A stretch of 64,000 nucleotides of DNA from Escherichia coli. GTDB lineage: Bacteria > Pseudomonadota > Gammaproteobacteria > Enterobacterales > Enterobacteriaceae. Location of the stretch: the NCBI RefSeq assembly GCF_003991155.1, contig NZ_CP031293.1. One strand, given 5' to 3'. The notes under the pieces are model-generated. The model searched no databases, had not been told where the DNA came from, and was given only the letters and a program-made list of their open reading frames with translations. Positions 4,545 to 26,544 of the stretch are shown here, one piece after another. A program made the position numbers and the translations under genes. How positions within the stretch are numbered: the stretch's first letter is position 1; every line of letters starts with the position of its first letter.

Positions 4545-7070
4545 ATGCCTTTACGACGGTTCTCCCCAGGACTGAAAGCCCAGTTTGCCTTCGGCATGGT
4601 CTTTTTGTTCGTTCAGCCCGATGCCAGCGCTGCTGACATAAGTGCGCAGCAAATAGGTGGGGTGATTATTCCGCAGGCCTTCAGTCAGGCGCTCCAGGAC
4701 GGCATGAGCGTCCCGCTCTATATTCATCTCGCCGGTAGCCAGGGTCGCCAGGACGATCAGCGAATCGGCAGCGCTTTTATCTGGTTGGATGATGGACAGC
4801 TACGCATCCGGAAAATACAGCTGGAAGAGAGTGAAGATAACGCCAGTGTCAGCGAACAAACTCGACAGCAGCTGATGGCTCTGGCGAACGCCCCGTTCAA
4901 TGAGGCCCTTACCATCCCCCTGACTGACAACGCGCAGCTGGATCTCAGCTTGCGCCAACTGCTGCTGCAGCTGGTGGTCAAGCGCGAAGCGCTGGGCACT
5001 GTACTACGCTCACGTAGCGAAGACATCGGGCAGTCCAGTGTTAACACCCTCAGCAGTAATCTGAGCTATAACTTCGGCGTCTATAACAACCAGTTGCGTA
5101 ACGGCGGGAGCAACACATCCAGCTATCTGTCGCTGAATAACGTTACTGCACTGCGCGAACATCATGTGGTGCTCGACGGCTCACTGTACGGGATTGGTAG
5201 CGGTCAACAGGACAGTGAATTATATAAAGCGATGTATGAACGCGATTTTGCTGGTCACCGATTTGCCGGTGGAATGCTCGACACCTGGAACTTGCAGTCC
5301 TTAGGGCCGATGACCGCCATTTCAGCAGGGAAGATTTACGGCCTTTCCTGGGGAAACCAGGCCAGCTCCACCATCTTCGACAGCAGCCAATCGGCCACGC
5401 CAGTGATCGCCTTTTTACCGGCGGCGGGCGAAGTACATCTCACCCGTGATGGGCGACTACTAAGCGTTCAGAACTTCACCATGGGCAATCATGAAGTGGA
5501 TACCCGGGGTCTACCGTACGGTATTTACGATGTGGAAGTTGAGGTAATCGTTAACGGTCGCGTGATCAGCAAACGCACCCAGCGGGTCAATAAGCTGTTT
5601 AGCCGGGGGCGTGGTGTCGGTGCACCGCTGGCGTGGCAGATATGGGGCGGTAGCTTTCATATGGATCGCTGGTCGGAAAACGGGAAAAAGACGCGACCAG
5701 CCAAAGAGAGTTGGCTGGCAGGTGCCTCGACCTCCGGCTCACTGAGTACGTTTAGCTGGGCGGCAACGGGATATGGATACGATAATCAGGCGGTGGGTGA
5801 AACCCGTCTGACGCTGCCGCTTGGGGGGGCGATCAACGTTAACCTGCAAAACATGCTGGCCAGTGACAGCTCATGGAGCAACATCGCCAGCATCAGCGCC
5901 ACTCTACCTGGAGGCTTCAGTTCGCTGTGGGTTAACCAGGAAAAAACCCGCATTGGCAATCAATTGCGACGTAGCGATGCCGACAACCGTGCAATCGGCG
6001 GCACACTCAACCTGAACTCACTGTGGTCGAAGCTGGGTACGTTCAGCATCAGCTACAATGATGACCGCCGCTACAACAGCCATTATTACACGGCAGATTA
6101 CTATCAAAGTGTCTACAGCGGTACCTTTGGTTCGCTTGGCCTGCGGGCCGGTATTCAGCGCTATAACAACGGCGACAGCAGCGCCAATACAGGGAAATAT
6201 ATCGCTCTCGATCTCTCGCTACCACTGGGCAACTGGTTTAGCGCAGGGATGACCCATCAAAACGGCTACACCATGGCAAACCTGTCAGCACGCAAACAGT
6301 TTGATGAAGGAACCATTCGCACTGTTGGTGCCAATCTGTCACGAGCCATCTCCGGCGATACCGGTGATGACAAAACCCTCAGCGGTGGGGCGTATGCACA
6401 GTTCGACGCTCGTTACGCCAGCGGAACGCTGAACGTCAATAGCGCGGCGGACGGCTACATCAATACTAATTTGACCGCCAACGGCAGCGTCGGCTGGCAG
6501 GGTAAAAACATCGCTGCCAGCGGGCGGACCGATGGCAACGCTGGGGTGATATTCGACACTGGCCTGGAGAACGATGGTCAGATCAGCGCCAAAATCAACG
6601 GGCGGATTTTCCCGCTTAACGGCAAGCGTAACTATCTCCCGCTCTCTCCCTATGGAAGATATGAGGTGGAGTTGCAGAACAGCAAAAACTCACTCGACAG
6701 TTACGATATCGTCAGCGGTCGCAAAAGTCATCTGACTCTCTATCCAGGCAATGTCGCTGTCATTGAGCCAGAGGTGAAGCAGATGGTTACCGTCTCCGGT
6801 CGTATCCGTGCGGAAGACGGCACACTGCTGGCTAACGCACGGATTAACAACCATATCGGCCGAACCCGAACCGATGAAAACGGCGAGTTTGTCATGGACG
6901 TGGATAAGAAATACCCCACTATCGATTTTCGCTACAGTGGCAATAAAACCTGCGAAGTGGCACTGGAACTCAACCAGGCGCGCGGTGCCGTCTGGGTCGG
7001 TGATGTGGTCTGCAGCGGCCTCTCATCGTGGGCGGCGGTGACGCAGACAGGAGAAGAGAATGAGAGTTAA
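4545..7070 (+). CDS. ecpC: Outer-membrane usher
   Basis: 841 aa ORF; operon position, size typical of fimbrial usher. Confidence 0.85.
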
Positions 7071-8703
7071 CCTACTGATAGCGATGATAATCTTTGCGCT
7101 AATCTGGCCTGCAACCGCGCTCAGAGCGGCAGTGAGCAAAACAACCTGGGCGGATGCTCCGGCACGCGAGTTTGTGTTTGTCGAAAACAACTCAGACGAC
7201 AACTTTTTCGTCACTCCTGGCGGGGCGCTGGATCCGCGCCTGACCGGTGCCAACCGCTGGACCGGTTTAAAATACAATGGTTCAGGAACCATCTATCAGC
7301 AAAGCCTCGGCTACATTGATAACGGTTACAACACCGGCCTTTATACCAACTGGAAGTTTGATATGTGGCTGGAAAATTCACCAGTTTCATCTCCTTTAAC
7401 TGGCTTGCGCTGCATCAACTGGTACGCAGGGTGTAATATGACCACCAGTCTTATCCTGCCGCAAACCACCGACGCCAGTGGATTTTATGGCGCGACGGTG
7501 ACCAGCGGCGGCGCGAAATGGATGCACGGCATGTTGTCAGACGCGTTTTACCAGTATCTGCAACAAATGCCCGTCGGCAGCAGCTTTACAATGACCATCA
7601 ATGCCTGCCAGACCTCTGTGAACTATGACGCCAGCAGCGGCGCACGCTGTAAGGATCAGGCCTCCGGCAACTGGTATGTTCGCAACGTCACCCATACGAA
7701 AGCAGCAAATCTACGGTTGATAAATACCCACTCGCTGGCGGAAGTATTTATCAACAGCGACGGAGTACCGACTCTGGGCGAAGGGAACGCCGACTGCCGG
7801 ACGCAAACCATCGGCAGCCGTTCAGGATTAAGTTGTAAGATGGTTAACTATACCCTGCAAACAAACGGACTCAGCAACACCTCAATCCATATATTCCCTG
7901 CGATCGCCAACTCGTCGTTAGCCTCGGCCGTCGGGGCGTACGATATGCAGTTCAGTCTGAATGGCAGTTCATGGAAACCGGTGAGCAATACCGCCTATTA
8001 CTACACCTTCAACGAGATGAAGAGCGCAGACTCGATCTATGTTTTCTTCTCGAGCAATTTCTTTAAGCAGATGGTGAACCTCGGGATCAGCGATATCAAT
8101 ACCAAAGATCTGTTCAACTTTCGCTTTCAGAACACCACATCACCGGAGTCTGGCTGGTATGAATTTTCTACCTCCAACACGCTGATTATCAAACCCCGTG
8201 ATTTCAGCATCAGTATTATCTCCGATGAATATACTCAGACACCGTCGCGGGAGGGATATGTTGGCAGCGGCGAGTCGGCACTCGATTTCGGCTATATCGT
8301 AACCACCAGCGGTAAAACAGCTGCTGACGAAGTGCTGATCAAGGTGACCGGACCCGCGCAGGTGATTGGCGGGCGCTCCTATTGTGTCTTCAGCTCCGAT
8401 GACGGTAAGGCGAAAGTACCGTTCCCGGCGACGCTTTCCTTTATTACCCGCAACGGAGCTACAAAAACCTACGATGCCGGGTGCGATGATAGCTGGCGGG
8501 ATATGACCGATGCGCTGTGGCTGACTACACCGTGGACTGATATCTCTGGCGAAGTGGGGCAGATGGATAAGACCACAGTCAAATTTTCGATTCCAATGGA
8601 TAACGCCATTTCGCTGCGTACGGTAGATGATAACGGCTGGTTTGGCGAAGTCAGCGCTTCAGGAGAGATTCATGTTCAGGCGACGTGGCGTAACATTAAC
8701 TAA
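7060..8703 (+). CDS. ecpD: Pilus tip adhesin/polymerised minor subunit
   Basis: 547 aa with signal peptide; overlaps ecpC stop. Confidence 0.85.
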
Positions 8704-11121: not shown

Positions 11122-11339
11122 TGCAAAACCTGAACGTCCTGTGGTATTCCTCTGGCATAATGATTTTCGCGATTAACCAACAACCAGACCAGCAAAGACG
11201 CCACCACAAGCACAGCAACATCCTTCAGGCTTGCCACACCCCATACGTGCGGCTCAAAGCCGCCATGGCATATTAATCCGCTTGCCATTTTCGAACAGCT
11301 GATTGGTTTAGTCCGGTGTTTCCCTGCTTGCACTTAAAA

Positions 11340-11474
11340 ATGAGCGGATGGGAAACTCTCGAAATGGTTCGTCGATATGCTCACCTTTCAGTCAGGCATT
11401 TCACCGCGCACGCGAGCAAAATCAAAGGCACAAGAGGAGAACGTAGTTTACTGAAATGTGAGGTAACTTATTGA
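11340..11474 (+). pseudogene. 3'-terminal remnant of a tyrosine integrase gene
   Basis: Translates to MSGWETLEMVRRYAHLSVRHFTAHASKIKG...*, a typical integrase C-terminus (RYAHL motif); upstream frame does not continue as integrase. Confidence 0.5.
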
Positions 11475-11480
11475 TTTAAA

Positions 11481-11496
11481 TGGTGCGATAATAGGA
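11481..11496. repeat. Distal att repeat: partial copy of thrW 3' end
   Basis: TGGTGCGATAATAGGA versus thrW 3' end TGGTGCCGATAATAGGAG at 31061-31078, same orientation. Confidence 0.55.
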
Positions 11497-11558
11497 ACAA
11501 TACACATAGGCGATAAGCTTTGTTTTTGTTGCCTTTTTTATTGTTCATTTTTTATAGA

Positions 11559-11578
11559 TACCCCCAAAAGTACCCCCA
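11559..11578. repeat. Arm-type motif TACCCCCAAAAGTACCCCCA near distal att
   Basis: Near-identical copy TACCCCCATAAGTACCCCCA at 30928-30947 near the thrW-proximal att. Confidence 0.4.
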
Positions 11579-11697
11579 TATCTTTTTCCGCCCCTGAAAT
11601 TTGGTTGTTATTCATACAGCATATCAGGCGGTAACGCTCTCCCTTTAACCCACTTATTGTATGATAGTGCTATCCCACAATAAGGAATCAGCCAGCC

Positions 11698-12057
11698 ATG
11701 AGAATGACCAGTCGCAAAAAAGAGATACTTAGCTACTTTGAACCGGATAACCTCGAATGGGTGACTGGTGAGATTGGTGCGCCGCCGTTCGATGTGTCGG
11801 GTGTGGCCTACCTGCTTCATGGCATGGTGTCGTTCGATAAGCGTCACCAGCTCGAATCAACCCGGCGAACACTGGAAAGCATGGTTGCTGGTGGACTGCT
11901 TGAGCGGGTGACAGTGTATGAATCGCGCCAGATACGGCGCGGCGGTGATACTAACGCAACGGTCGTGCGCTACGGTTTACCCGGTCAGTGCGCTGTTATG
12001 CGCGATACTGGCGGCGCTGACAACGCAATATCAGGTGAATACATGCGGGTCAGTTAA
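11698..12057 (+). CDS. Hypothetical protein (119 aa), island cargo
   Basis: ORF-track; convergent and overlapping stop with next gene; no recognised domain. Confidence 0.35.
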   Translation: MRMTSRKKEILSYFEPDNLEWVTGEIGAPPFDVSGVAYLLHGMVSFDKRHQLESTRRTLESMVAGGLLERVTVYESRQIRRGGDTNATVVRYGLPGQCAVMRDTGGADNAISGEYMRVS

Positions 12058-12592
12058 TAGCCTGCAATCTGTCGTTGATGCGGCTCAGGTCGTAAACCCG
12101 GCGTTCAATATCCAGCATCAGGAAATTGTGGATCTCGGCCTGCTCAGGATTATCAGACTCTCTGGCCTGTAATAGCAATTCATTGTAACCATGCAAGCCG
12201 CCTGAGTTTTCCGCCGGGGTGGTGCCTTTCCCACGCAGGCAGCTAATGGGCTGATTACTCGTATCGTGTGTTTGCTTCTCCAGCACAATGACGCAATCCC
12301 ACCAGTCGCCAAAGTCATACGTGTAAACCAGCTTGTCACCCTCATTCTGGAGCGCCGCCCATAGTGGCGTGATTGCCGCGTTACCCATGCTTTCATCCTC
12401 ACCCCATACGCGATACTCGCTACCTGGATCACCTTTACGCCCTTTCTCGAACATATACAGGTGTTCGTCATTCCAGCCAAAAGCTAACTGGATCACGGCA
12501 TGAAGTTTACTAAAGGGGATTTGCTCTGGAACCAGCACACGCCGCCATATAGGTGGTTTGCTGTCTCGGATGGTTATCTTTAGCTGGTACAT
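12050..12592 (-). CDS. pRiA4b ORF-3-like family protein
   Basis: 180 aa with signature MYQLKIT..PPIWRRVLVP...LHAVIQLAFGW...YTYDFGDWWDCVI typical of the plasmid pRiA4b ORF-3-like domain. Confidence 0.6.
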   Translation of the reverse strand: MYQLKITIRDSKPPIWRRVLVPEQIPFSKLHAVIQLAFGWNDEHLYMFEKGRKGDPGSEYRVWGEDESMGNAAITPLWAALQNEGDKLVYTYDFGDWWDCVIVLEKQTHDTSNQPISCLRGKGTTPAENSGGLHGYNELLLQARESDNPEQAEIHNFLMLDIERRVYDLSRINDRLQAIN

Positions 12593-12712
12593 GCAAATCC
12601 TGAATAAATGCGAATCGGAAGGATAACGATACTGACGTACTCACAATTCTGTAAAGGTGAATAAAGGAAATTTGCTTAATACGCATAAGTTACATGTGGA
12701 ATAATCCCATAT

Positions 12713-12898
12713 CTACCTGCGCGGCGCTGGCTTCTTCCACTGGTAGGCAGGTGCTCGCATCATTTCGCGGAACCTGTCGCGCCGGGCTATATCGGCATTA
12801 ACTGATCGTTCTATCTCCCGTTGATCTGCCTGTGTAAGCTGGTGGCCTCCGTGCTCAAGTTTGGCGATGGTCAATAAGGCTATTTCGCGTGGTGTCAT
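12713..12898 (-). CDS. Hypothetical small protein (61 aa)
   Basis: ORF-track only. Confidence 0.25.
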   Translation of the reverse strand: MTPREIALLTIAKLEHGGHQLTQADQREIERSVNADIARRDRFREMMRAPAYQWKKPAPRR

Positions 12899-13195
12899 AC
12901 GTCATACCCTCTGGAAGGATGAAACACGCCCGGATTAAATTTCATTTTTCGCGGGTATAAAAAAACGATGGGGCGGGCAGTCCCGGATAGTCAGGGCTGT
13001 AGAGATTTGACTACCCCCTCCCCACTGGATTCAGGTTACTGCTATTCCGTTAAGCGCTGCTTACGGGGATAGCTGCGTTGTGATTTTGACCATTCAGGTC
13101 GCCGCTATTTCCTCACCGATTGGGTGCTACGCGCGCGCGTACTTGTCCCGAAATACCAGAAACCGCCAGCCAGAGGATGATTTCCCTCTGGTGGT

Positions 13196-13477
13196 CTACC
13201 TTTGCCTCTTGCCGCCATTTAACCGGAAGGCGTTACCGTTCGGTTGCGCTATCCCCATGCGGTGTTGCGTTTCGGTAACAGCTTTATGCAGGTCGCCAAA
13301 TTCCTCAACCTTCACGGGCGGGCGCTTCACGTTCTCCAGACACGTTTCACGGCGGCGCTTTATCCATTCCCGATCATCGTCCTCGGTGCATAACAGCATG
13401 ACTTCCATCCATCGTGCGGCAGCTCTCCGGTATAGCCCTTTTGACTCCAGCTCTTCAGCTTTCCTGTCCCTTATCAT
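13196..13477 (-). CDS. PerC/Pch-family transcriptional activator-like protein
   Basis: 93 aa with ..ELESKGLYRRAAARWMEVM.. resembling the conserved PerC/Pch core. Confidence 0.55.
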   Translation of the reverse strand: MIRDRKAEELESKGLYRRAAARWMEVMLLCTEDDDREWIKRRRETCLENVKRPPVKVEEFGDLHKAVTETQHRMGIAQPNGNAFRLNGGKRQR

Positions 13478-13506
13478 TTCTGCCTCTCAGATTATATAGA
13501 TAAGCA

Positions 13507-13636
13507 AAAAGGTGTTGGTTCAGTTGGTTCAGTTGGTTCAATTTGTAAAGATCGTTGTTTTTATTGTGTTTTTTCTGAAATGTTGAACCAACATCAACTC
13601 ATTTTGAACCAACACAGCCCAGCTCTGAACCAACAA
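13507..13636. repeat. Iteron cluster A (GTTGGTTCA / TGAACCAAC repeats), left inverted repeat
   Basis: 13507-13550 is the exact reverse complement of 21756-21799; followed by AT-rich stretch and further TGAACCAAC-like repeats. Confidence 0.65.
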
Positions 13637-13748
13637 CACAGCGATAGCTTTGTGATTGGTCCGTTATTTTCTGGCTGATATTTGAGCGTATAACAGTGTT
13701 ATACAGTGGTATACTGTATGGATATTACTCACTGATATGGTCTTTGCA

Positions 13749-14192
13749 ATGAGCAAATCTAATCTGATCGCGTTCCGCATCCCATCTGAATTGCAGGATG
13801 AGTTTAATCGGTCTGTTCTCGCTTCTGGAGGGGATAAAACCTCCTGGCTTGTTGATGCGATTCGCATGAAGCTGGGACAGCCGGAAAAGTCTATTGATTC
13901 ACGAATGCTTGGGCTGGTGGAGCGCATGGAAAAAGCCGCTGCGTCGCTTATTGCCGGAAAGCCGAACATCCCACCAAAGCCATATAACGAAACGGCAGTT
14001 ATAAAGATCATTGCCGATACCATCCAACAGGGATTTGATAATGGGCGTGTGATAGCTGAACGGATCAATGAAGCAGGCTATCAAACAAAAGCTGGTAAAG
14101 CGTGGGATAAAGATATTTACAGCGCGTGGAAGCGTCAGGGAAGCAATGCTGAAAAGTTAAAAGCGGTGATTGATTGTAAGGTCAGCGTATAA
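13749..14192 (+). CDS. Putative ribbon-helix-helix DNA-binding protein
   Basis: N-terminus SKSNLIAFRIPSELQDEFNRSVLASGGDKTSWLVDAIRMKL is RHH-like; preceded by inverted repeat ATACAGT-N5-ACTGTAT at about 13700-13725; start 13737 or 13749. Confidence 0.4.
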   Translation: MSKSNLIAFRIPSELQDEFNRSVLASGGDKTSWLVDAIRMKLGQPEKSIDSRMLGLVERMEKAAASLIAGKPNIPPKPYNETAVIKIIADTIQQGFDNGRVIAERINEAGYQTKAGKAWDKDIYSAWKRQGSNAEKLKAVIDCKVSV

Positions 14193-14271
14193 ACATGAGT
14201 GCCCATTGGAAAGCTGCTTGGGCCAATACCTTTATACACCAGCAGGTGGTGACGATAGGTGAGGATTAGGC

Positions 14272-14493
14272 ATGAAAGGCAGAACGCCACACATTGAACA
14301 TCAAGCCAACCACTTCTCGGATGTTCGCAATGAGATGATTGCCATTCGCGGTGATATGCACGGCTTGGAGCGTCGAATTATTGATAAGATTGATGAAAAT
14401 AGAGATAAGGCCAGTGAAAATCAAAAGTGGATCATCGGCCTGTTGATTTTATCAATTCTTATCCCGCTACTTATCGCATTGGTCACAAAATGA
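14272..14493 (+). CDS. XhlA-like small membrane protein (coiled coil plus C-terminal TM)
   Basis: 73 aa; ..LERRIIDKIDENRDKASENQKWIIGLLILSILIPLLIALVTK matches XhlA/holin-like architecture. Confidence 0.4.
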   Translation: MKGRTPHIEHQANHFSDVRNEMIAIRGDMHGLERRIIDKIDENRDKASENQKWIIGLLILSILIPLLIALVTK

Positions 14494-15036
14494 ATATCCA
14501 ATGTGTATGCTGTCGATGCTACGCGCGCGTACTTGTCGCAAAATATCAGGCAAAGGCCAGATTCAGAAATTCGTGATAACCACCAGCACAACATGAGAGG
14601 TCATGTAACGCGATTTATCACACCAGATACATGTGATTGGTGTACCCGCATAAAACATCGTCATAGCGCGTCCTGTGCGCATATACGCCGATAATCAACA
14701 CATCACCACCACTCTGTCTCATGTAGAGAACAGTTTTATGGTACTCCCCTCCATCGTGCGCGTACTGGTCGGACGTAGTTGCAAAATTTTTTGCAACTGA
14801 TACCCCTCGCGCGCGTACTGGTCACGAAATTGGTGTTTTGCTGTGGCAGTGATATCAGAAAAATCTTCCTGTTTCACATAAAGCGGATATGCGCGTAATG
14901 TAACGGCCCCATCAACTGGGAGCGGATTTGAGCCCGAATGTGTAGGCAATGTCACTTAACGTTTGTCGCATACCTTCCAGAAAAAGCGATTCATGAATAA
15001 TAGGGGCATGAATGCCCGGCGTACCGGGCTTATTAG

Positions 15037-15735
15037 TTAATTTGGTGCTTTAGGGTCAACATTAAAAGTTATATCACCTTCTGTATTTTTCCCGGCATAG
15101 CTAGCGGCTATTCTCGCCAACCCTTTGTAATCAGCAATTCCATCAGACTGTTGCGAGACGACTGAGCTACCAACTTTCCATAACATATTAATCTGCCGAT
15201 TATTGAGATAAGCCTTGGCATCAAACGACTGGAGTATCACCCCTGCGCCGTAGAACGTGTCCGTCACAGTTGTGTTATACGCGCCAGTAATTCCATAAGT
15301 AGGCGTATAAACTGTTGTTGCCGTTCCAGTGGTATTAGCTGTACCGTAGCCACCACCATAACTATTGAACGTGGTGTTCGAGTTTCCGTACGTTGTTGCT
15401 GAGCTCACACCAGTTTGCCCGTATATTGGGATGGTTACATTACGAGTATTTGAAATGGCCCCGCTTCTCAAAAAGTTCAAGAGAATTACCTGGTCAGCCA
15501 ATTTTTCATCTTTAACTTGTGTATATCCTTGGCTTGATAAACTGGCGGCTACTACCGTAGCTATTTGAGTGTATTCAATCTGTTTGGTGTTCCAAAGTTC
15601 TTGGCTTGCGGGGATGATCAAGAACTTCTTACCGACAGATTGCCCGGAAGATAAAGCATTGACCGTTACTAACGGTTTTTGTACGCATCCAGCCAATAAT
15701 GACAGGGATAATATTAAAAGAAGATTTTTAATCAT
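15037..15735 (-). CDS. Lipoprotein, unknown function (Thr/Gly/Tyr-rich)
   Basis: Signal peptide with lipobox LLAGC; 232 aa. Confidence 0.6.
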   Translation of the reverse strand: MIKNLLLILSLSLLAGCVQKPLVTVNALSSGQSVGKKFLIIPASQELWNTKQIEYTQIATVVAASLSSQGYTQVKDEKLADQVILLNFLRSGAISNTRNVTIPIYGQTGVSSATTYGNSNTTFNSYGGGYGTANTTGTATTVYTPTYGITGAYNTTVTDTFYGAGVILQSFDAKAYLNNRQINMLWKVGSSVVSQQSDGIADYKGLARIAASYAGKNTEGDITFNVDPKAPN

Positions 15736-15885
15736 GATAATCTCACCTAAGAATTGCGTGGTTATAAATTATCATCACTGTAAGCGAATGTAAGCCACAG
15801 GCTCGTAATGTGATATGGAATTTTGATAGTTGGCTCAATATCAGTATGCCGTCCTTGGCTATTATGGTTTTGTTAGTTAGAGCGT

Positions 15886-18612
15886 CTATTCCCATTCGCT
15901 AACATCTTTCATGCCACTGAGGGTAGCTACAATCCCGGCCCTTGTCAGTTTCACGAATTCTTCAGCCCCAACGGCATCACGAATTGCTTTCATGGCAATT
16001 TTATTGGCCGAAAATCGTTTCTCTGCTGCGGCGATCGCTGCTGGTGATGCCCCTGCGCGCACTGCTTTTGTAGCTTCCTGAACGGCTTTCTCTATCGCAT
16101 ATCGACCACTTCTTGTCGCCCCAATCTTAGCCACAGCATTTCTTAGCGCGCCACCAGCAACCAAACCACTAATCGAACCAATTACACCACCGCCAAAGCC
16201 TCCAGCGATCGCACCTGACTGTTGAACTCCGTTCATAATCACGCCGACGATCTTTGGAAGGCCTGAATCGAGCGTTTTGAGAGCCTCAGTTGTTCTTCCC
16301 GTGCGCTCTACGTATCGCTGCGGTCTGGTACTGGCTTTAGCGAGTACACCGAACTCTTTCATCATTCTACCGAGATCTGGCGCATGACGACTGATGGCGT
16401 TTACATTCTGCTGGGTCATGAGCTTGGCAAAATACTGGATACCTGACTCTTCACCGATTCCTCCCTTCTCTCCCTGCGCCACAGCATGCTGAAGAATAGA
16501 TGCTATTGCAGGTTGGCGTTCTGCTTCCGGCAGCGCGGAGATAAGACGGTGAAAAGCTCCCGTTCCAGTGTTTGCGGATGCCTTAAGCGTATCGGCACCT
16601 TTTCTTACCATAGCGTCTGATGCGAGATCTCGACCAAAAACAGATTCGGCATTTTGTTTGGCGATAATGTAACTTTTAGAGAGATCGTTAGCTTTCTGCC
16701 ATTCTGTGAGGAAGTTTCCTTTTTCAGCCATGATGCGCATGTCATCAGTGATAGCTCTGCGCATTTCTCCGGCAATCCGGGCGGCATTGGCCTTACCTGC
16801 CCGGGTGTTTGCTTGTTCAGCATCAGCAAACTTAGCACGCCATGCCTTCATCCCGTCGAAGGTTATGCCGCCACCTTGGTTGTTGGCAGCCTGAAACTGT
16901 TTCATCTCCGGGCTGAGTGGAACATTGGCTGCTTTTTCTGCTTGGACGACAGCCATCCCATTACTCATTTTCATCCTTTCGCGTGGCATCGTGCTTCGCA
17001 GTTCTGCCCATGCCATATTCTCTGCTGTTTTCATATCACTGAGGCTCGCGATGATGCGCTCTTTAATTGCTGCGCTTTTTTCTGATGCGCTTCCAGACTC
17101 AGCACCGAAATCAGACAACTGCTTATTCAACTTTGAGGATATTTCATTGAAGGCCGTAAGGTGAGCATCCTGAACATTCCCAGGAGTTGATGCCAGAACA
17201 CCTTCTGCTTGGGCAATTCCACGACTACCTGAGCGCATTCCAGGCGTCAGGGTGTTGATATTAATACCAGTGATTTTCGCCGCCTTAGCGACATCATCTC
17301 TGACGTTTGATGCCTGCGATGCGATATGCTCTCGGCCTACGGCAGAACGCGCTGCTTTCGATACATCATTGGCGGTTTCCAGAGTATTTGCTGCCCCTAA
17401 CACATGGCCTGATTGATTTGTATTACTCCGCAATACATCTCGCATTACGTCACTGGCTGTCTGTCCGCTCTTTATTAAAGCGCGTGCTCCTAGCGATCCT
17501 GCTAGGCCAATACCTGTCTCTTTTGCTAGGTCTTCTGGGCTGATCTGCCCGTTCTTTTGGGCGTTCACCAATGTACCTGGCAGGTTTTCTGCCAACATAC
17601 TAGCCACCTTTGTGGCCGCACGTTCAGCACGTGGAGCGTTGGCAACTGAAGAAGCTGCGGTAGCTGCCTTTCCTGCACCTAATCCTGTAATAAGGTAAGG
17701 TGCTAGCTGCTCACCAGCCTGCGCGTATGGATCTGTAGGTTGGTCTACTGGGCGAAAGACAGGTGATATGGGCGTGTATGTGCCATCACCCACACCAAGC
17801 TTCTGAGCTGCCCATGCTCCGGCTGATTGCGCCGCATTGACTACCCCCACGCCTGCGTCCATTACATCAAACGGTATATTAGCAATCCCTCTGGCCATCT
17901 GCTCTGGCGCAGCTTTCAGTCCTGGCGAAAGATATTCCATCTCAGGATTAAGGTTAGACTTGGCTACTTGCTGCTGCGGTTCCCCGGCATTTTCATCGGC
18001 GAGAAACTGAGCTCTTTTCTGCTCCCATGAACTGGCTGTTGGTAGTCCTGCTTCTATGTTCTTAAATTGCTGACGTTTTGCTTCCCATGCAGAAATATCT
18101 CCCACCTGAGAGATTTCTTTATCAAGCTCTGAGTAGTCAGGCTGCTGAAGATTGCGATGTTGACTGGTTTGTGCAAACTGCAAGATTTCACTGTCATCAG
18201 GGATTATTCCGGCATCTGCAAATTTACTTACGTAATTAGCCGTTTCATCTGGCAGTGTAGATTTACCGTTTCTGACGGCATTAATACGAGCATAGCCAGA
18301 ATTATACCCAGCCAATGCCATACCTATATCACCAAATCGCTTCATTCCTTTATTGAGATGGTTTGCTGCGATATCCATTTGCTTTTCAAATGGCAGTGAG
18401 CGCGGATCTGTTCCACGATAACCAGCATCACTCATTACTGAGGGCATCAGTTGAGCAAATCCTCTAGCTCCTTTCGGTGACTCGGCACTTCCGTTACCAC
18501 TAGATTCATTGCCAACTAATGTTTCCATCGTCCCTGATGGGAAACCATATTTTTCATCGAGATGACGGGAATAGGCTTTCTGTTTTTCTGTCAGTTGTGC
18601 CATCATTGCCAT
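15886..18612 (-). CDS. Large Ala-rich protein with N-terminal lytic transglycosylase (SLT) motif; phage internal virion/ejection protein-like
   Basis: 908 aa; N-terminus contains ESSGNG...GFAQLMPS...AGYNSGYARI (family-1 LT ES / GLMQ / AYNxG motifs); rest is long Ala/Gly-rich. Confidence 0.6.
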   Translation of the reverse strand: MAMMAQLTEKQKAYSRHLDEKYGFPSGTMETLVGNESSGNGSAESPKGARGFAQLMPSVMSDAGYRGTDPRSLPFEKQMDIAANHLNKGMKRFGDIGMALAGYNSGYARINAVRNGKSTLPDETANYVSKFADAGIIPDDSEILQFAQTSQHRNLQQPDYSELDKEISQVGDISAWEAKRQQFKNIEAGLPTASSWEQKRAQFLADENAGEPQQQVAKSNLNPEMEYLSPGLKAAPEQMARGIANIPFDVMDAGVGVVNAAQSAGAWAAQKLGVGDGTYTPISPVFRPVDQPTDPYAQAGEQLAPYLITGLGAGKAATAASSVANAPRAERAATKVASMLAENLPGTLVNAQKNGQISPEDLAKETGIGLAGSLGARALIKSGQTASDVMRDVLRSNTNQSGHVLGAANTLETANDVSKAARSAVGREHIASQASNVRDDVAKAAKITGININTLTPGMRSGSRGIAQAEGVLASTPGNVQDAHLTAFNEISSKLNKQLSDFGAESGSASEKSAAIKERIIASLSDMKTAENMAWAELRSTMPRERMKMSNGMAVVQAEKAANVPLSPEMKQFQAANNQGGGITFDGMKAWRAKFADAEQANTRAGKANAARIAGEMRRAITDDMRIMAEKGNFLTEWQKANDLSKSYIIAKQNAESVFGRDLASDAMVRKGADTLKASANTGTGAFHRLISALPEAERQPAIASILQHAVAQGEKGGIGEESGIQYFAKLMTQQNVNAISRHAPDLGRMMKEFGVLAKASTRPQRYVERTGRTTEALKTLDSGLPKIVGVIMNGVQQSGAIAGGFGGGVIGSISGLVAGGALRNAVAKIGATRSGRYAIEKAVQEATKAVRAGASPAAIAAAEKRFSANKIAMKAIRDAVGAEEFVKLTRAGIVATLSGMKDVSEWE

Positions 18613-19922
18613 CCCTTAAGTTTTGCCTGATAGTAACTTTCCGGCAGATAGCCATGTGCGGTCACATAATCCTTAACCAGTGAAGGATCCTGCAACAGCA
18701 TTTTGGTATCAGTTTCTTCGTCCTTAGATTTGGTTACAGGAATACCGAGCCCGGCAATCTGTCGTTTCTGCATTCGAATAATTACGTCCTGCGCTTTATT
18801 CAACTCTCGCAAAAATGCCTCATTGCTGGTTGCTGACTTAATGCCATTTTGAGATTGCATAAGGGCAGCCCTTTCCCCTTCGGTTGGGTTAGAGCCAAAA
18901 GTCCCTTTGAGGCTAGGCAGAATAACCTTTAGGTTGTATTCATCAGCTTTGGCGCGTAGGCTTCGTGTGTCTTCTGCTACATCAGGAAGGAATCCAAACC
19001 CCAGCGTCAGGGGGTTATAGTTCTGCGAGCGGGTAACGGCCGAAGGATGTTTCCCTACAATTCCCGCCAGTTCATGACCCACTTCAAGCGCAGAGTTCAA
19101 GGAGTCGATGTTACCTACAACAGTATTAATTTTATCGTTCATCTTCTCCACTTTCGCCTGCTGTACCTTGCTCAGTTCAGCATTGAGCTTGTCTCTCTCG
19201 ATGTCATTTTGAGCACGTCCAAGTCGTGCTTTCAGAACCATTTCTCTCGTGCGTAGTTGGTTATCGGATAGGACTTTGAACTGCTCCATATCGAGACGTC
19301 GATTACCCTGTTCCGCATTAACCTGAGCATTATATGCGGATGTATCTGCGTTCTGCTGTGCAATGCTCTGCCCTTGCTGCTTCTCTTGAACACTAAAGTA
19401 ACTATTTGGATCAGCATGGAGGTGGATGAGGTCAGTGATTCTGTTGAATTCCTGTGGGTCATTCTGCCAAGACTGATAAACCTCTTCAGCAGGAAGACCA
19501 AATCGCTGTAATACTGGATTTGCCTGCTGAATGGCCTTCTGCATGGTCAGTGGATCTCCAGTTTGTGACGCAAGACGCAGATTCATGGCAGCGTCAGCGG
19601 TCTGTCGATTTTGCTCAGCATCAATGAATCCCATCTGTTTTTGAGAATCAGCCATAAACTGGGGATACTGGGCCATTAACTTCTGCACGCCAACACGATC
19701 ATTATTAGCTACCGCACTACCCAACCGTGCCTGATATTCTTTTAACTGCTGGGAAATTTGCGCCTGCTGATTAATCTCAGCAACGCCTCTTAGCCCCTGT
19801 AGCGCCATTAAACCTACGTTTGGCTGCTGCTGATACTGCACAGGCTGAGGAACGGAAGAACGAGGAGCATTATCATTTTGCGGTGCCATGCTAGGCAGCC
19901 CGCCAAGTTGCCATGTCGCCAT
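18603..19922 (-). CDS. Gln-rich coiled-coil protein, ejection-protein-like
   Basis: 439 aa; overlaps downstream gene start (operon). Confidence 0.45.
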   Translation of the reverse strand: MATWQLGGLPSMAPQNDNAPRSSVPQPVQYQQQPNVGLMALQGLRGVAEINQQAQISQQLKEYQARLGSAVANNDRVGVQKLMAQYPQFMADSQKQMGFIDAEQNRQTADAAMNLRLASQTGDPLTMQKAIQQANPVLQRFGLPAEEVYQSWQNDPQEFNRITDLIHLHADPNSYFSVQEKQQGQSIAQQNADTSAYNAQVNAEQGNRRLDMEQFKVLSDNQLRTREMVLKARLGRAQNDIERDKLNAELSKVQQAKVEKMNDKINTVVGNIDSLNSALEVGHELAGIVGKHPSAVTRSQNYNPLTLGFGFLPDVAEDTRSLRAKADEYNLKVILPSLKGTFGSNPTEGERAALMQSQNGIKSATSNEAFLRELNKAQDVIIRMQKRQIAGLGIPVTKSKDEETDTKMLLQDPSLVKDYVTAHGYLPESYYQAKLKGWQ

Positions 19923-20599
19923 TAGAATCCAAGCCCCCCAACAAGACCAATAAGCCCACCACCAATAGCGCCGGCCGCAGTTCCTATTCCAGGAACAACG
20001 GAACCAAGTTGCGCACCCGCTAAAGCGCCTGATGCTGCCCCACCAATACCACGCGCAAGACTGGATGGCTGCTGCGCCTGACCTGCACGAATAGCGCCAA
20101 GCCCCTGCAAGAGTTGTCCGGTATTATTGGCGTAGTTTTGCCCTGCCGTTGCCTGCCCTGATGCCGCATTCATCCCGACATTTAGCAGGTTTCCATAATT
20201 TTGCATTTGCCCACTAAGCCAATTGTTATAAAGCATGGGCGCAATGGAAGATAACTGGTTACTGGTAGCTGTTGAGCCAAGCCCCCCGGTAGCTTCTGCT
20301 GAGACAAGGTTCTGATAACGGGCCTGATCTGCCTGTGTTTTATATAAACCAGAACCAAAGAAATCATTCGCGGCTTTATTCTGCCCTTCCAGAGTCATCA
20401 GTCCTTGCAGTTGTTGTAAAGCAGGCAATCCGACTTCTGCATACGGCTTGAGATTATTCATCACCGTATTCCACTGCTCGCGCTGCAAATCAATTGCCTG
20501 CTGCTGGGCCTTCGCCTGAGCTTTAGAGGCACCACCATCACCGCCTTTTTCGTATACGGCACGATTGAGATGTTTATGAGCTATATGGGTAATTAACAT
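19922..20599 (-). CDS. Gly/Ala-rich protein with hydrophobic C-terminus, ejection-protein-like
   Basis: 225 aa; C-terminal GxxxG-rich hydrophobic segment; contiguous with neighbours. Confidence 0.45.
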   Translation of the reverse strand: MLITHIAHKHLNRAVYEKGGDGGASKAQAKAQQQAIDLQREQWNTVMNNLKPYAEVGLPALQQLQGLMTLEGQNKAANDFFGSGLYKTQADQARYQNLVSAEATGGLGSTATSNQLSSIAPMLYNNWLSGQMQNYGNLLNVGMNAASGQATAGQNYANNTGQLLQGLGAIRAGQAQQPSSLARGIGGAASGALAGAQLGSVVPGIGTAAGAIGGGLIGLVGGLGF

Positions 20600-21054
20600 T
20601 CGCTGAATTCCTTATATTGTTGCCGAGTTAACTGATAAAGCGTTACGCCGACGGGTTTACCACATCTGATATAAGCATCATCAAGGTGACCAACACGGGT
20701 AGCGCCAAGCAAACGGATAATTGCCCGTCCATATTTTGTGGTGTCAGGAACCATAGTGATGCTGTTAAGGAATGGTGAGTTTTCGAGAAGCCATTTGCAG
20801 AATAATCGATGCCCTTGCAGTGCATATTCACCACGGAATCCGGGGTCGTACACCGCATGGCATTCAACAACGCTATGCCAGAAGTTACGCACTTCATGAA
20901 CGCCAGCCAGCACTAATCCTTCGTAGATGCCGAGATATACCGCATCAGGCTTGATGTAGTACGTGTGCCCCGGCTCAACAATATTTTCGGTATTGCCTGG
21001 CTCGTTAAGAAAGGCCTGTAATCGCACAGGGTTATCAATAAATTTTAGTTCCAT
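20593..21054 (-). CDS. Hypothetical protein (153 aa), first large gene of the module
   Basis: ORF-track; overlaps next gene start. Confidence 0.4.
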   Translation of the reverse strand: MELKFIDNPVRLQAFLNEPGNTENIVEPGHTYYIKPDAVYLGIYEGLVLAGVHEVRNFWHSVVECHAVYDPGFRGEYALQGHRLFCKWLLENSPFLNSITMVPDTTKYGRAIIRLLGATRVGHLDDAYIRCGKPVGVTLYQLTRQQYKEFSEC

Positions 21055-21070
21055 GCGATGCCATCCATTT

Positions 21071-21232
21071 TCACATACAGCCTGCCAGCGCCTTATCTAT
21101 TAACCCTCGTGCAATTTCATGCAGAGTTGGCGCTACTCCAATTCCTGATTTTTTACGCTGCTCTTCCTGAATTTTCTTTATCGCTTCCATTTGCTTCTCA
21201 CTTATCAATACCGGCTTTACTGAAATAGCCAT
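21071..21232 (-). CDS. Small RHH-like protein (about 53 aa)
   Basis: Internal start MAISVKPVLISEKQMEAIKKIQEE... within the 96-aa track ORF; beta-strand plus two helices pattern. Confidence 0.3.
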   Translation of the reverse strand: MAISVKPVLISEKQMEAIKKIQEEQRKKSGIGVAPTLHEIARGLIDKALAGCM

Positions 21233-21685
21233 AACGCCCCCCTTAGAACTGTATAAAACAACAGTTATTATAGTTTCACAAATCGCAATATTCATCATCG
21301 TAATTGCAAAATATGAAACAAATAGCACAAAAAAATGCCACCGCTCAGTAGCTGGTGGCATCGTTCTGTGTGTCAGGTTTTGACAGGTTTTTTATGGACT
21401 CTAAAAACTATATTTATGGTATCGCATTACTCTTCACGGCAGGTGCTTTTCAGTTCTGCCCTTGCTTCTGGCTCCATTGGTAATTTGATTCGCGATCAGC
21501 TATGCGGATGGTTTGCTGAACAGGCATAACAACTTCTCAGAGGCTGTTTTTTGAACTACGAAAATTTCGTAGTGCTCACTTTCAAAAACGTCACGCCCTT
21601 GTACACAGGATTTTACGAAAGTCTCGTAAAACACTCTCTGATGCCAGCCAGGTGTTGTGCGCATCAATTCAGTCACATTGTGTCG

Positions 21686-21799
21686 GTTCAAAATACCGTG
21701 TTGTTGGTTCAGTGTTGGTTCAATAAAAAGAATAAAATCCTTATAAAACAATACACTTTACAAATTGAACCAACTGAACCAACTGAACCAACACCTTTT
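21686..21799. repeat. Iteron cluster B (TGAACCAAC repeats), right inverted repeat
   Basis: Three tandem 9-mers at 21762-21793; degenerate copies at 21686-21722; immediately 3' of the primase gene. Confidence 0.65.
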
Positions 21800-21817
21800 C
21801 TACGCACATGAAGAAGC

Positions 21818-24577: not shown

Positions 24578-24932
24578 CGTACCCCACGTGGTCTATAGCG
24601 TTTGCGATATGGCTAACCAGCATCTGCCACTTGGTTATTCCGTAATCAGTCAGCATGCCATCATTGTTTAGCCACATATCAAATTCAGCGGTTGTCGCAA
24701 GTTTCCACTTATCGCCGTGGACAGTCCTCATTGCTGGGTACATGAATGCGCAAATCAGATCACAAACATCTGACGGCTTCAGAGATGTAGTAATGGTGCG
24801 TCCCTCTGGCGTCTGAATTGCCATTTTCTCTTCACCAGTAGAATGAAGGTTATGAATCCACACAGCACCAGCAATCTTTGCCACCTGCTCTCCGATTGCG
24901 GAGCTAAGCGCCATTTCTGCATTTTCACGCAT
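24561..24932 (-). CDS. Hypothetical protein (123 aa)
   Basis: ORF-track; overlapping stops/starts with neighbours. Confidence 0.35.
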   Translation of the reverse strand: MRENAEMALSSAIGEQVAKIAGAVWIHNLHSTGEEKMAIQTPEGRTITTSLKPSDVCDLICAFMYPAMRTVHGDKWKLATTAEFDMWLNNDGMLTDYGITKWQMLVSHIANAIDHVGYGDAKH

Positions 24933-25266
24933 GAGAACCTCCCGCTACAGTTGCGCCCATGTCATTAACCATGCTTTGCCATATCTCACGCCCGACGTCA
25001 GTCAATCCGTCCTTAGTGACGCAACGTTCAAGAAGCTCGATCCCCACGGTTTCCCACTGCGGGTAGAACACTTTCATGGCTGCCAGTGTGTAGCTATCGA
25101 TCAGGCTGCGAACGCCTTTTACTCCATTGACGATTTCCACACGGACGGCCTCGCCGTCCGCATCAACCATGAAATAGTCCCCGCCGCTGGTGGAGGTAAT
25201 GTGGTTATACAGTGCCGACGCATACTTATTTGCCAGCGCATTCAGTCGGAAATTTTTAGTAATCAT
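24925..25266 (-). CDS. Hypothetical protein (113 aa)
   Basis: ORF-track. Confidence 0.35.
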   Translation of the reverse strand: MITKNFRLNALANKYASALYNHITSTSGGDYFMVDADGEAVRVEIVNGVKGVRSLIDSYTLAAMKVFYPQWETVGIELLERCVTKDGLTDVGREIWQSMVNDMGATVAGGSHA

Positions 25267-25276
25267 GGCTCCATCC

Positions 25277-25879
25277 TCAGTGCGTCACTGGTTCCGCTGG
25301 CATGCCGTTTTCATTCAGTTCAGCTATAAAGCTGTTGTGAAGTTCAGCAAGCGTTTCACGCCCAAATGGAGTCAGTGCTCCTTGTTCCACATCCATCATG
25401 GCTCTGTAGAAAATAATGGCGCGTTCTGTGCCAGACTCGATGCCAAAACGTTCTATCATCGCGCCCTCAATGTTGTTTGCCATAGCGAGGCGCTCTGCTA
25501 CTGGATACAGCGGCATGGCGACGATGCCGTTGGAATAAACAGCCACTTCGGAAGGATTGCCAGTATCATCAATGATGCTGACAGTGCCGTTTTCCTCTCT
25601 CATTTCCAGCATGAATACTGTTGCGATCAGCCATCTCCACATAATGACGTTATGCTGTGATGTGTAATCGAAATATCCCTGGTTACCGCCATCGGCAATA
25701 GCGAGATGTATTGACATACCTTCATCTGGTTTATCGTCATAATCCCCGGCATCCAGACGATTTACGGCATCAATATATGAGATGGCCTCAACGCGTTCTG
25801 TCATGCCATCGTTGCTGCGGTACATGATGTTTACGCCGTCAGGCGTTGCTTCTGCATGGAAAGTTAAGAAATTATTCAT
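25277..25879 (-). CDS. Hypothetical protein (about 200 aa)
   Basis: ORF-track frame 25277..25984; likely start at internal Met (MNNFLTFHAE...). Confidence 0.35.
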   Translation of the reverse strand: MNNFLTFHAEATPDGVNIMYRSNDGMTERVEAISYIDAVNRLDAGDYDDKPDEGMSIHLAIADGGNQGYFDYTSQHNVIMWRWLIATVFMLEMREENGTVSIIDDTGNPSEVAVYSNGIVAMPLYPVAERLAMANNIEGAMIERFGIESGTERAIIFYRAMMDVEQGALTPFGRETLAELHNSFIAELNENGMPAEPVTH

Positions 25880-26093
25880 GTTTCGCCTCGCCTGAATGAT
25901 TCTGTAACTCATATTTGCCCAACAATTCGTCCGCTTCCTGAATAGCTTCTGGTACGCCATTGAGCAGTGACATAACCGCGCCAATCATTAACTTGTCTCT
26001 GTTGCTGGGGCTGGCCCCTTCAAGCCAGAACCCTAAAACAGTCTGAACCTGTTCGATGCGACATTGCGCTTCAATGAGCTGGATGTTGGTCAT
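25872..26093 (-). CDS. Hypothetical small protein (73 aa)
   Basis: ORF-track; 4-nt overlap with upstream gene. Confidence 0.3.
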   Translation of the reverse strand: MTNIQLIEAQCRIEQVQTVLGFWLEGASPSNRDKLMIGAVMSLLNGVPEAIQEADELLGKYELQNHSGEAKHE

Positions 26094-26353
26094 TTCGCAC
26101 TCTCCACATCGATTAAACCGATATCTATCAGGGAGGTAACTTTTTGTAGCCAGCTATTGATTACTGTCGCCTGTTCCCCTCCCACCGAGGGAACAATCTC
26201 ATTCATCACATGAACCAGACCTGTGCGCGCTCTGGTAAGCCGTTCAGTCGCGCAATCTGCGGGAGTGAATGTGTCTGGATATGGCTCTTCACGCCCCAGC
26301 AATGATTCAATTTCCAGCTCACACGGATGACGATAAATTAAGTTGATATTCAT
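26090..26353 (-). CDS. Hypothetical small protein (87 aa)
   Basis: ORF-track; ATGA-type overlaps. Confidence 0.3.
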   Translation of the reverse strand: MNINLIYRHPCELEIESLLGREEPYPDTFTPADCATERLTRARTGLVHVMNEIVPSVGGEQATVINSWLQKVTSLIDIGLIDVESAK

Positions 26354-26544
26354 TTTTCACCCCCAAGAATTACCAGCTCGGCACGGGCATCGTTAACCAA
26401 AGATGAGCACGCTTTAATCGCATCCACGACATCAGCAGCGTCCATTTCTTCAGCCGAAAGACTGACAGCAACCAGGACAGCCGCTGCTTGCTCGATTAAT
26501 TGAAGTGCGGACGTAAGTCGAGGGGCATTAATTGAGTTATTCAT
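26350..26544 (-). CDS. Hypothetical small protein (about 64 aa)
   Basis: Internal start [10 protein letters not shown]... in track ORF 26350..26601. Confidence 0.3.
   Translation of the reverse strand: MNNSINAPRLTSALQLIEQAAAVLVAVSLSAEEMDAADVVDAIKACSSLVNDARAELVILGGEK

Follow-up and report, generated by a model that had tools for sequence, protein, structure and literature searches.

EcCIMP1, a phage-inducible chromosomal island (PICI) of Escherichia coli MP1 with the attachment (att) core TCCTATTATC, owes its mobilisation to the P22-like phage Kapi1 (Pick, Stadel and Raivio, ISME J 2025, PMC11773190). It excises, circularises and is transduced, and it adds superinfection immunity to its host (PMC11773190). 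P22-like phages are the helper type of the EcCIMP1-like satellite family. Two further systems bear on the locus described here: the omega repressor of plasmid pSM19035, a ribbon-helix-helix (RHH) protein whose binding repeats can be direct or inverted, and the PBSX lysis cassette of Bacillus subtilis, in which xhlB follows xhlA.

The window analysed in this work is a 64-kb stretch of the E. coli chromosome (64,000 nucleotides), to which all coordinates refer. A preliminary description of this DNA had pointed out the inverted repeat ATACAGT-N5-ACTGTAT immediately upstream of an RHH-like gene that is followed by a gene for a 73-aa coiled-coil/transmembrane protein resembling XhlA, and had suggested either an autoregulated two-gene lysis unit or a toxin-like module under RHH control. 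The reading that we prefer, at a probability of roughly 60%, is an autorepressing gene for an RHH-helix-turn-helix (HTH) protein with read-through into a membrane-protein cargo gene, located at the variable left end of a PICI (Table 1).

Table 1. Positions of the cassette, its parts and the neighbouring features in the window.
Feature	Position	Strand	Basis
Divergently transcribed PerC-family gene (EcCIMP1_025 equivalent)	13196-13477	-	Pfam PerC E 3.7e-30; annotation and PMC11773190 agree
Iteron cluster at the left cassette border: 3 x GTTGGTTCA (9-bp period), AT-rich spacer, 3 x TGAACCAAC (21-bp period)	13514-13634		repeat analysis
Replaceable cassette (operator/promoter, RHH gene, 73-aa gene)	13636-14512	+	EcCIMP1 comparison
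Heptads GTATAAC and GTTATAC (centres 10 bp apart), conserved core of the operator	13688-13704	+	conservation in 31 loci, covariation
Inverted repeat ATACAGT-N5-ACTGTAT, interpreted as heptad 2 and a third, degenerate heptad (GTATACT)	13701-13719	+	sequence; third heptad inferred
Candidate extended -10 promoter element TGGTATACT, no good -35	13707-13715	+	read from sequence
Gene for the 147-aa protein (WP_001409589): RHH, central helix and HTH-like C-terminal domain	13749-14192	+	annotation, homologues, models
GAGGA, ribosome-binding site 6 nt 5' of the ATG of the 73-aa gene	14261-14265	+	read from sequence; kept in the P22-like prophage copy
73-aa gene (product WP_001378274): coiled-coil membrane protein with a C-tail anchor and remote likeness to XhlA	14272-14493	+	sequence, profiles
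Terminator-like hairpin, possible end of the RHH/73-aa transcript	15014-15029	+	sole + strand candidate in 13100-15100; weak T-run

A replaceable cassette in an EcCIMP1-like island

The RHH/73-aa region is contained in a ~19.6-kb island at the tRNA-Thr gene thrW (31061-31136), which is bounded by direct repeats CGATAATAGGA at 11486-11496 and 31067-31077 and has paired TACCCCCA motifs inside both ends. The island encodes an integrase, an AlpA-type regulator, an AntA/AntB antirepressor, an Ash protein and a TOPRIM-DUF927 primase, together with P22-like ejection proteins, a lipoprotein and PerC. The features that define EcCIMP1-like PICIs are all found here, namely an integrase at tRNA-Thr, AlpA, a P4-alpha-like primase, the att core and a length of ~20 kb; judged by this gene content, the island is an EcCIMP1-like PICI and the region under study is its variable left-end cassette.

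Direct comparison with EcCIMP1 of E. coli MP1 delimits the cassette sharply. The two islands share the insertion site at tRNA-Thr between proA and yagU as well as the att core, and they are 98% identical over 11479-13635 and 14513-31300, a backbone that includes the PerC-family gene, the primase and the ejection-protein-like genes. They differ in that EcCIMP1 lacks exactly the operator/RHH/73-aa region: the intervening 877 bp are exchanged there for 1.24 kb with a 72-aa gene and alpA_1. Because of this replacement, the studied region coincides almost exactly with a replaceable cassette, and because EcCIMP1 is a functional satellite without the whole of it, the cassette is dispensable. The RHH gene, the operator, the iterons and the 73-aa gene are not described in the EcCIMP1 paper (PMC11773190). 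The 73-aa protein can be ruled out as the source of EcCIMP1 superinfection immunity, since EcCIMP1 is without the gene. We also rejected the idea that the RHH gene is the terminal gene of the island next to the att repeat, the left att copy lying 2.2 kb further left. A search of Rfam over 11400-15900 gave a single chance match, located on the iteron inverted repeat.

The RHH gene borders a cargo slot

A variable association between the two genes of the cassette is evident from the distribution of the region in E. coli. The number of genomes with the RHH region is 360 out of 5426, and the 73-aa gene accompanies it in only 165; the remaining E. coli matches (~195) end near window position 14159, within the variable 3' tail of the RHH gene. 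Elsewhere, the genes found directly after the RHH gene encode Abi_2, SoFic (E 2e-122), ShosT/ShosA (E 1e-47 and 2e-101), RnlA or SocA/Panacea, and in further cases a trypsin-like protein or, on the other strand, a 62-aa gene; within E. coli, the slot can carry an ImmA/IrrE pair or an Abi family protein. The same slot, limited by the iteron/RHH border on one side and by GCGCGTACTKGTC repeats on the other, holds different recognisable defence systems in different genomes, as befits a defence hotspot. Because the slot content varies and the 73-aa gene is present in only part of the E. coli genomes with the RHH region, we conclude from gene context that the RHH gene belongs to the conserved backbone and forms the left edge of a cargo/defence hotspot, and that the 73-aa gene is one cargo variant, accessory rather than the partner of the repressor.

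A 2022 paper on satellite hotspots (PMC9122126) reportedly presents a similar situation, in which a fixed slot between backbone genes carries alternative anti-phage systems; the satellite family and the flanks are others than here, where the RHH gene and the iterons stand on one side. The RHH gene marks one border of a cargo/defence hotspot in EcCIMP1-like satellites across Enterobacterales, and the RHH/iteron border could anchor mining for new defence genes. The hotspots in the 2022 study are reportedly other than the EcCIMP1-like slot.

A conserved heptad operator at the RHH promoter

The inverted repeat of the preliminary description is indeed present, ~30 nt 5' of the conserved start codon at 13749. 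Since short inverted repeats are common in the window (112 perfect 7-nt repeats with spacers of 0-10 nt, against ~50 expected from Markov simulations), ATACAGT-N5-ACTGTAT is no evidence by itself. A better repeat, GTATAACA-n-TGTTATAC, overlaps it. Written as a pair of heptads, GTATAAC-N3-GTTATAC, it is perfect and occurs a single time in the 64-kb window; the next-best sites have 3 mismatches, about chance level.

An alignment of the sequences 5' of the gene in 31 homologous loci (more than 15 genera of Enterobacterales) reveals one common architecture: a heptad, 3 bp, a second heptad, 5 bp and a -10-like hexamer that is usually preceded by TG. The heptad operator was found once per locus, always just 5' of the RHH gene, in 16 loci. 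The loci fall into two classes with equal spacing. In class A (10 loci, from E. coli, Klebsiella, Pluralibacter, Raoultella, Serratia, Buttiauxella izardii and Morganella) the heptads are inverted, GTATAAC-N3-GTTATAC, and are followed by TATACT, TACACT, TATTAT or TATAAT; in class B (21 loci, from Erwinia, Pantoea, Rosenbergiella, Tatumella, Mixta, Cedecea, Chimaeribacter and B. noackiae) they are direct, GTCTTAC-N3-GTCTTAC, and are followed by TAAAAT. The repeat ATACAGT-N5-ACTGTAT is kept only in the loci of E. coli, Klebsiella, Pluralibacter, Raoultella and Serratia marcescens, and is missing from loci L011, L021 and L033. It is thus the less conserved part of the operator, surviving in a subset of class A only, and the adjacent heptad pair is the conserved core; the claim that an operator lies at the gene's own promoter gains support from the conservation across the 31 loci.

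In most of the 31 loci, a TGn-TAnAnT element follows heptad 2 at a distance of 5 nt; in class B it reads TGGTAAAAT. It is from this alignment that we propose an extended -10 promoter, since a consensus sigma-70 scan of 13100-15100, in which both hexamers were required, called no promoter. We infer that a third heptad overlaps the -10; it would read GTATACT in class A and GTAAAAT in class B, the latter resembling the reverse complement of GTCTTAC. A pair of dimers spaced by one helical turn and covering the -35/spacer of an extended -10 promoter would be the arrangement classically associated with RHH genes that repress themselves.

The beta-strand of the RHH domain follows the operator class without exception: in 30 loci, class A goes with S-N/T-L-V/I-A-F-R and class B with S-L/I-S-V-T-F-R, so that residues 5, 6 and 8 covary with the heptads, a pattern of two sequence classes that may reflect only one or a few evolutionary switches. 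In the register given by hhalign, L6, A8 and R10 of the RHH domain correspond to Q9, N11 and R13 of P22 Arc, which we take to be the base-contacting residues in the Arc-operator structure; positions 6 and 8 are class-specific and R10 is invariant. Because the heptad class covaries perfectly with the beta-strand residues, an autorepressor is indicated, and the covariation suggests that the 147-aa protein may bind the heptads via its beta-sheet. The two combinations of beta-strand and heptad, in class A and in class B, form a compact natural experiment in RHH specificity.

One could argue that the palindromes are promoter sequence or chance and that no protein binds there, given the 112 such inverted repeats in the window and the ease with which AT-rich -10 regions form them. 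We consider this most improbable in view of an architecture that stays fixed across genera and of a perfect covariation between heptads and beta-strand that is hard to explain without binding.

The self-repressing RHH gene that we favour would have counterparts in the omega repressor, MetJ, ParG and CopG, which likewise place RHH dimers on short repeats and regulate their own promoters, as is predicted for the present gene. The present locus departs from the omega type in its heptads, which are 3 bp apart rather than contiguous, in having only two strong sites, in the absence of a partition ATPase or rep gene from the operon, and in the further domain at the C-terminus of the protein.

The 147-aa protein

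The ORF of the RHH gene opens at 13737, and RefSeq and all homologues start at the ATG at 13749, giving 147 aa beginning with MSKS. The protein has no match in Pfam, NCBIfam or PADLOC, and a PDB-sequence profile search returned noise only. No curated RHH sequence model recognises it; the sequence signals are a match to phrog_30270 (E 4e-4) and a weak hhalign match, in the expected register, of RHH residues 1-28 to residues 3-31 of P22 Arc (E 0.0067, probability 5.7%). In a model of the monomer, the C-terminal helical domain (residues ~75-145) is confident (pLDDT >90) and the N-terminus is poorly packed, and Foldseek found no match to this model in the PDB. Because RHH domains fold only as dimers, two N-termini were then modelled joined by a linker. 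The resulting model, in which the linkage is artificial, has a pTM of 0.71 and contains beta-alpha-alpha twice, as an intertwined dimer with a two-stranded antiparallel sheet, which is the RHH fold; it matches TraY, Arc, AvtR, VirC2, NikR and CopG. The RHH label given to the gene in the preliminary description is borne out by this linked-dimer model for the N-terminus, and the models predict that the 147-aa protein is an RHH-type DNA binder.

The C-terminal domain gave weak matches to HTH domains, and a search with this domain alone recovered the same family and its fragments only, with no new architectures. At least 365 relatives of ~143 aa occur Enterobacterales-wide, with a mean column identity of 76%. 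A tblastn search of 50,697 phage genomes with the RHH protein found nothing, and we therefore place the family in islands and not in sequenced phages. In this way an unannotated family (at least 365 clusters, with no Pfam or NCBIfam model) gains a testable function and an operator with two natural specificity variants.

Iterons beside the RHH gene

The iteron cluster to the left of the cassette has a counterpart at 21682-21792, just 3' of the primase gene, and the two-cluster arrangement presumably resembles ori/crr of satellite P4. Such a cluster lies at most 700 bp 5' of the RHH gene in at least 20 of the 31 loci; several loci with the RHH gene show no iterons within the flank examined. Across genera, hardly any variation is seen in the C-terminal domain or in the iteron sequence, while strand and heptads of the RHH system vary together.

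These observations could point to a role at the origin, in which the protein would mainly govern replication or copy number of the island, comparable to plasmid CopG and P4 Cnr; the HTH-like C-terminal domain would bind the TGAACCAAC iterons and autoregulation would be secondary. The closeness of the RHH gene to the iterons in most loci, the primase gene adjoining the second cluster as in P4, and the shared invariance of C-terminal domain and iterons, as opposed to the covarying strand and heptads, are consistent with this proposal. We nevertheless regard it as unlikely, because EcCIMP1 has both iteron clusters and excises, circularises and is transduced without the RHH gene, because the iterons are more simply taken as binding sites of the P4-alpha-like primase, and because of the loci in which the gene stands without iterons.

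The 73-aa protein and its relatives in prophages

The 73-aa gene begins 79 nt after the RHH gene, no promoter or terminator was called in the gap, and the two genes are probably in the same transcript. The product has a hydrophobic segment at residues ~53-71 (mean Kyte-Doolittle 2.95) and a charged, heptad-like N-terminal part. The architecture is accordingly that of XhlA of PBSX (PF10779), also a small protein, in which a coiled coil at the N-terminus precedes one transmembrane helix at the C-terminus, and this part of the earlier claim stands. The likeness in sequence is remote: the 73-aa protein has no Pfam hit at E values up to 1, and in its core relatives XhlA is the best or only Pfam hit, covering nearly the full model with 14-26 bits (E 1e-5 to 6e-2). 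XhlA hits at E up to 0.1 were obtained in 18 of 37 relatives (best 5.5e-8), and the gathering threshold of 34.7 bits is reached neither by the 73-aa protein nor by any relative. Since the relatives score below the Pfam threshold and the window protein has no hit, membership in XhlA is denied, and the resemblance would reflect remote homology or convergence of a simple architecture. The protein matches phrog_6324 (function unassigned, E 3e-11), with further, weak matches to PHROGs labelled 'holin' and 'hemolysin'; it has no PADLOC or NCBIfam match. Its family comprises 24 clusters, essentially all from E. coli, and an exhaustive profile search gave 57 representatives.

Relatives of the gene are found in the immI region of E. 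coli P22-like prophages, where the order is arc, divergent mnt, a 123-aa gene, a 77-aa homologue of the 73-aa gene, and a gene for a small transmembrane protein; these mnt-side genes are convergent with gp16-gp20-gp7, and P22 itself has mnt-orf59a-sieA at the corresponding place. The 77-aa homologue and the small two-transmembrane protein after it are reminiscent of the xhlA-xhlB order. XhlA belongs to a lysis cassette, whereas the prophage gene lies in a prophage-state regulatory/immunity region and not among late lysis genes. The DNA homology between the island and the P22-like prophages is confined to 14234-14491 (80% identity), which corresponds to the 73-aa gene with its ribosome-binding site, and suggests that the 73-aa cargo was imported from, or shares its origin with, the prophage-state mnt operon of P22-like phages. 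Genes for small membrane proteins evidently travel as single-gene cassettes between the immunity regions of P22-like prophages and the satellites of such phages. PADLOC found nothing meaningful among the prophage neighbours of the 73-aa homologue. Another copy lies among hypothetical genes just 5' of the tape-measure gene of a Klebsiella phage, without this RHH gene.

These contexts speak against the lysis unit and the toxin-like module of the preliminary description, in which the RHH protein would be the antitoxin-like or lysis regulator of a toxic, holin-like 73-aa protein. The order of the genes, RHH first and small membrane protein second, with an operator at the promoter, does resemble type II toxin-antitoxin loci, and the sub-threshold XhlA, holin and hemolysin profile hits point in the same direction. 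However, RHH homologues in other genera, as well as those in the ~195 E. coli genomes, have other genes downstream; the 73-aa family occurs behind Mnt and the 123-aa protein in P22-like prophages, and in the Klebsiella phage, independently of this RHH gene. The conserved co-occurrence typical of type II toxin-antitoxin genes is absent, each gene being widespread without the other. The 79-nt gap between the genes also counts against such a module, no endolysin or holin gene flanks the 73-aa family gene in the island, the P22-like prophages or the Klebsiella phage, and the conserved C-terminus of the RHH protein looks like a DNA-binding HTH and not like a toxin-binding tail. We have rejected both readings on gene context and missing co-conservation, and consider a dedicated pairing of this kind very unlikely.

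Comparison with the immunity region of P22

The cassette resembles P22 immI in several respects: the RHH repressor gene points toward the ejection-protein genes (the gene 16 side), small accessory/membrane genes lie behind it, and the operator is at the repressor's own promoter. It differs in that the RHH protein has 147 aa with an extra HTH-like domain and does not belong to the Arc/Mnt family by sequence, and in that the operator consists of two heptads and not of Mnt or Arc operator sequences. Mnt of the P22-like prophages, encoded upstream of the 77-aa gene, hits PF03869 (Pfam Arc); the 147-aa protein does not, and its hhalign comparison with this Mnt gives a probability of 1.5%. There is also no arc-ant pair at this locus: in place of divergent arc-ant genes with overlapping operators, the other side has perC, more than 200 bp away, with the iteron cluster in between.

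This comparison raises the question of whether the RHH protein is a maintenance repressor like Mnt, with its main target elsewhere (a helper-phage promoter, perC or the antirepressor) and its own promoter as one of several operators. The mnt-like position relative to the ejection-protein genes, divergent from the regulator gene perC, and the AntA/AntB antirepressor encoded by the same island would agree with such a role. The heptad pair is unique in the window and absent from the P22-like prophage segments examined, and for the sequence examined we rejected control of other island or helper genes by this operator. The distance of the operator from the perC start, the lack of a conserved divergent partner in other genera and the low similarity to Arc and Mnt further argue against it, and we hold a Mnt-like role to be quite unlikely.

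Proposed mechanism

The positions, the conservation and covariation, the folds as predicted, the limits of the cassette and the variety of cargo are shown above; beyond them, the autorepressor/cargo model would add DNA binding, repression, co-transcription and a function for the 73-aa protein. The 147-aa protein would dimerise through its N-terminal RHH, and two dimers would sit on GTATAAC-N3-GTTATAC, one helical turn apart, in the -35/spacer of the extended -10 promoter, with a weaker third site probably overlapping the -10. Occupancy of the operator would block RNA polymerase, and the RHH gene would in consequence repress itself, keeping expression low and buffered in the resting island. The transcript probably crosses the gap into the 73-aa gene, which has its own ribosome-binding site and no detectable promoter.

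The 73-aa product would be a C-tail-anchored inner-membrane protein with a cytoplasmic coiled coil, a remote relative of XhlA. Because of the position of the gene and the nature of the other cargo, our best guess, and it is only a guess, is a role in phage exclusion or abortion: a prophage-state membrane function against incoming phage, such as superinfection exclusion. The gene-sized unit that is common to island and prophages occupies the place that orf59a and sieA have in P22, opposite the ejection-protein genes. A probable RHH autorepressor and a tail-anchored protein of XhlA-like type, each of a known kind and each an unannotated family member, are combined here at the variable end of a recently described satellite; the unit is a fairly ordinary one of regulator and cargo, and the findings on the cassette do not overturn current understanding.

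We also considered a more elaborate version, which we think improbable, in which the RHH-HTH protein is a hitherto unrecognised regulator with two heads in the backbone of a widespread PICI family and the 73-aa protein a stand-alone exclusion effector analogous to SieA. With its RHH head the regulator would set up a promoter that is buffered against copy number and supplies the cargo slot. With its invariant C-terminal head it would bind either the origin iterons or the primase, and in this way tie cargo expression to satellite replication. The 73-aa protein, XhlA-like and tail-anchored, would block the delivery of P22-like phage DNA at the ejection-protein channel.

A second E. coli island, located beside dinD/yicG/ligB, carries a 66-aa variant behind the same RHH gene. 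In the prophages and the Klebsiella phage, the copies stand between a gene for a phrog_4293 protein on the 5' side and one for a small membrane protein on the 3' side. The cassette has neither of these partners, and a lone 73-aa gene without the phrog_4293 partner may be inactive.

Iteron clusters and border motifs

Two clusters of the 9-mer TGAACCAAC lie in the window, one adjoining the RHH gene and the other directly after the 3' end of the TOPRIM-DUF927 primase gene (see table). Each holds at least three direct and at least three inverted copies with an AT-rich spacer between them; across the window, matches to TGAACCAAC with at most one mismatch number 29, against 14.6 expected, and the exact copies are concentrated in these two places. 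The clusters look like P4-style ori/crr iterons belonging to this satellite; they are not described in the paper on EcCIMP1, the related satellite of E. coli MP1 (PMC11773190). In the Pantoea coffeiphila locus L019, two RHH genes and three iteron clusters follow one another in tandem within 2.5 kb (5700-8300), which suggests either tandem islands or a duplicated iteron-RHH unit.

A second motif, GCGCGTACT(T/G)GTC, occurs four times in the window, always on the + strand (0.34 copies expected). It flanks the variable slots, standing close to perC on its 3' side and at the right-hand edge of the cassette that carries the RHH gene and the 73-aa XhlA-like gene. In other E. coli islands the motif is likewise found after the cargo, and in Erwinia it stands directly after the RHH stop codon. 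These copies may be cassette-exchange or regulatory sites.

Features in the window and in comparison loci (L numbers; coordinates are those within each locus)
Feature	Locus	Coordinates	Strand	Remark
Recombinase fragment	window	11316-11474		tyrosine recombinase C-terminus; ends at left att copy (11481-11496), outside island
61-72-aa family	window	12713-12898	-	
61-72-aa family	L005	8511-8699		
61-72-aa family	L002	8440-8631		
61-72-aa family	L044	4931-5149		
GCGCGTACT(T/G)GTC	window	13135-13147, 14525-14537, 14758-14770, 14811-14823	+	
TGAACCAAC clusters	window	13514-13634; 21682-21792		
Predicted lipoprotein	window	15037-15735	-	232 aa; signal ending LLAGC
Ejection-protein set	window	15886-21054	-	P22-type
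Three-gene set	L040	4517-5518		
Three-gene set	L039	4517-5620		
Three-gene set	L043	3526-4584		

Genes associated with the cassette

The RHH gene repeatedly has as its neighbour a member of one family of small genes (61-72 aa, C-terminus ...APAYQWKKPAPRR; matching phrog_7271, of unknown function). In Klebsiella, Erwinia, Pantoea, Cedecea and Rosenbergiella this member is directly downstream of the RHH gene and convergent with it; in EcCIMP1 it lies within the replacement cassette, and the window's copy is 0.85 kb away from the RHH gene on the upstream side.

A three-gene set with an XhlA-like member recurs in P22-like E. coli prophages (in immI, downstream of mnt) and in one Klebsiella siphophage. 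Its products are a CxxC protein of about 120 aa assigned to phrog_4293, a tail-anchored XhlA-like protein assigned to phrog_6324, and a small membrane protein belonging to phrog_7294, 8100 or 19131. The set, for which PADLOC returned no match, could represent an accessory or exclusion system that has yet to be characterised.

Other genes of the island

The predicted lipoprotein gene is common to the window's island and EcCIMP1, and its product, with only faint TraT/DUF4136 similarity (E 0.06-0.09), is a candidate source of the superinfection immunity reported for EcCIMP1.

Possession of its own DNA-delivery proteins is unusual for a satellite. The ejection set of this one comprises a DUF2824 protein, a gp7-like protein and a gp20-like protein (Inj_translocase), with a 908-aa lytic-transglycosylase protein at the gp16 position, where related Klebsiella islands carry a 903-aa TMP_3 protein.

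At the left end, the recombinase fragment is left over from an older element at thrW, a case of tandem accretion; the equivalent place in MP1 is occupied by an Arm-domain integrase pseudogene.
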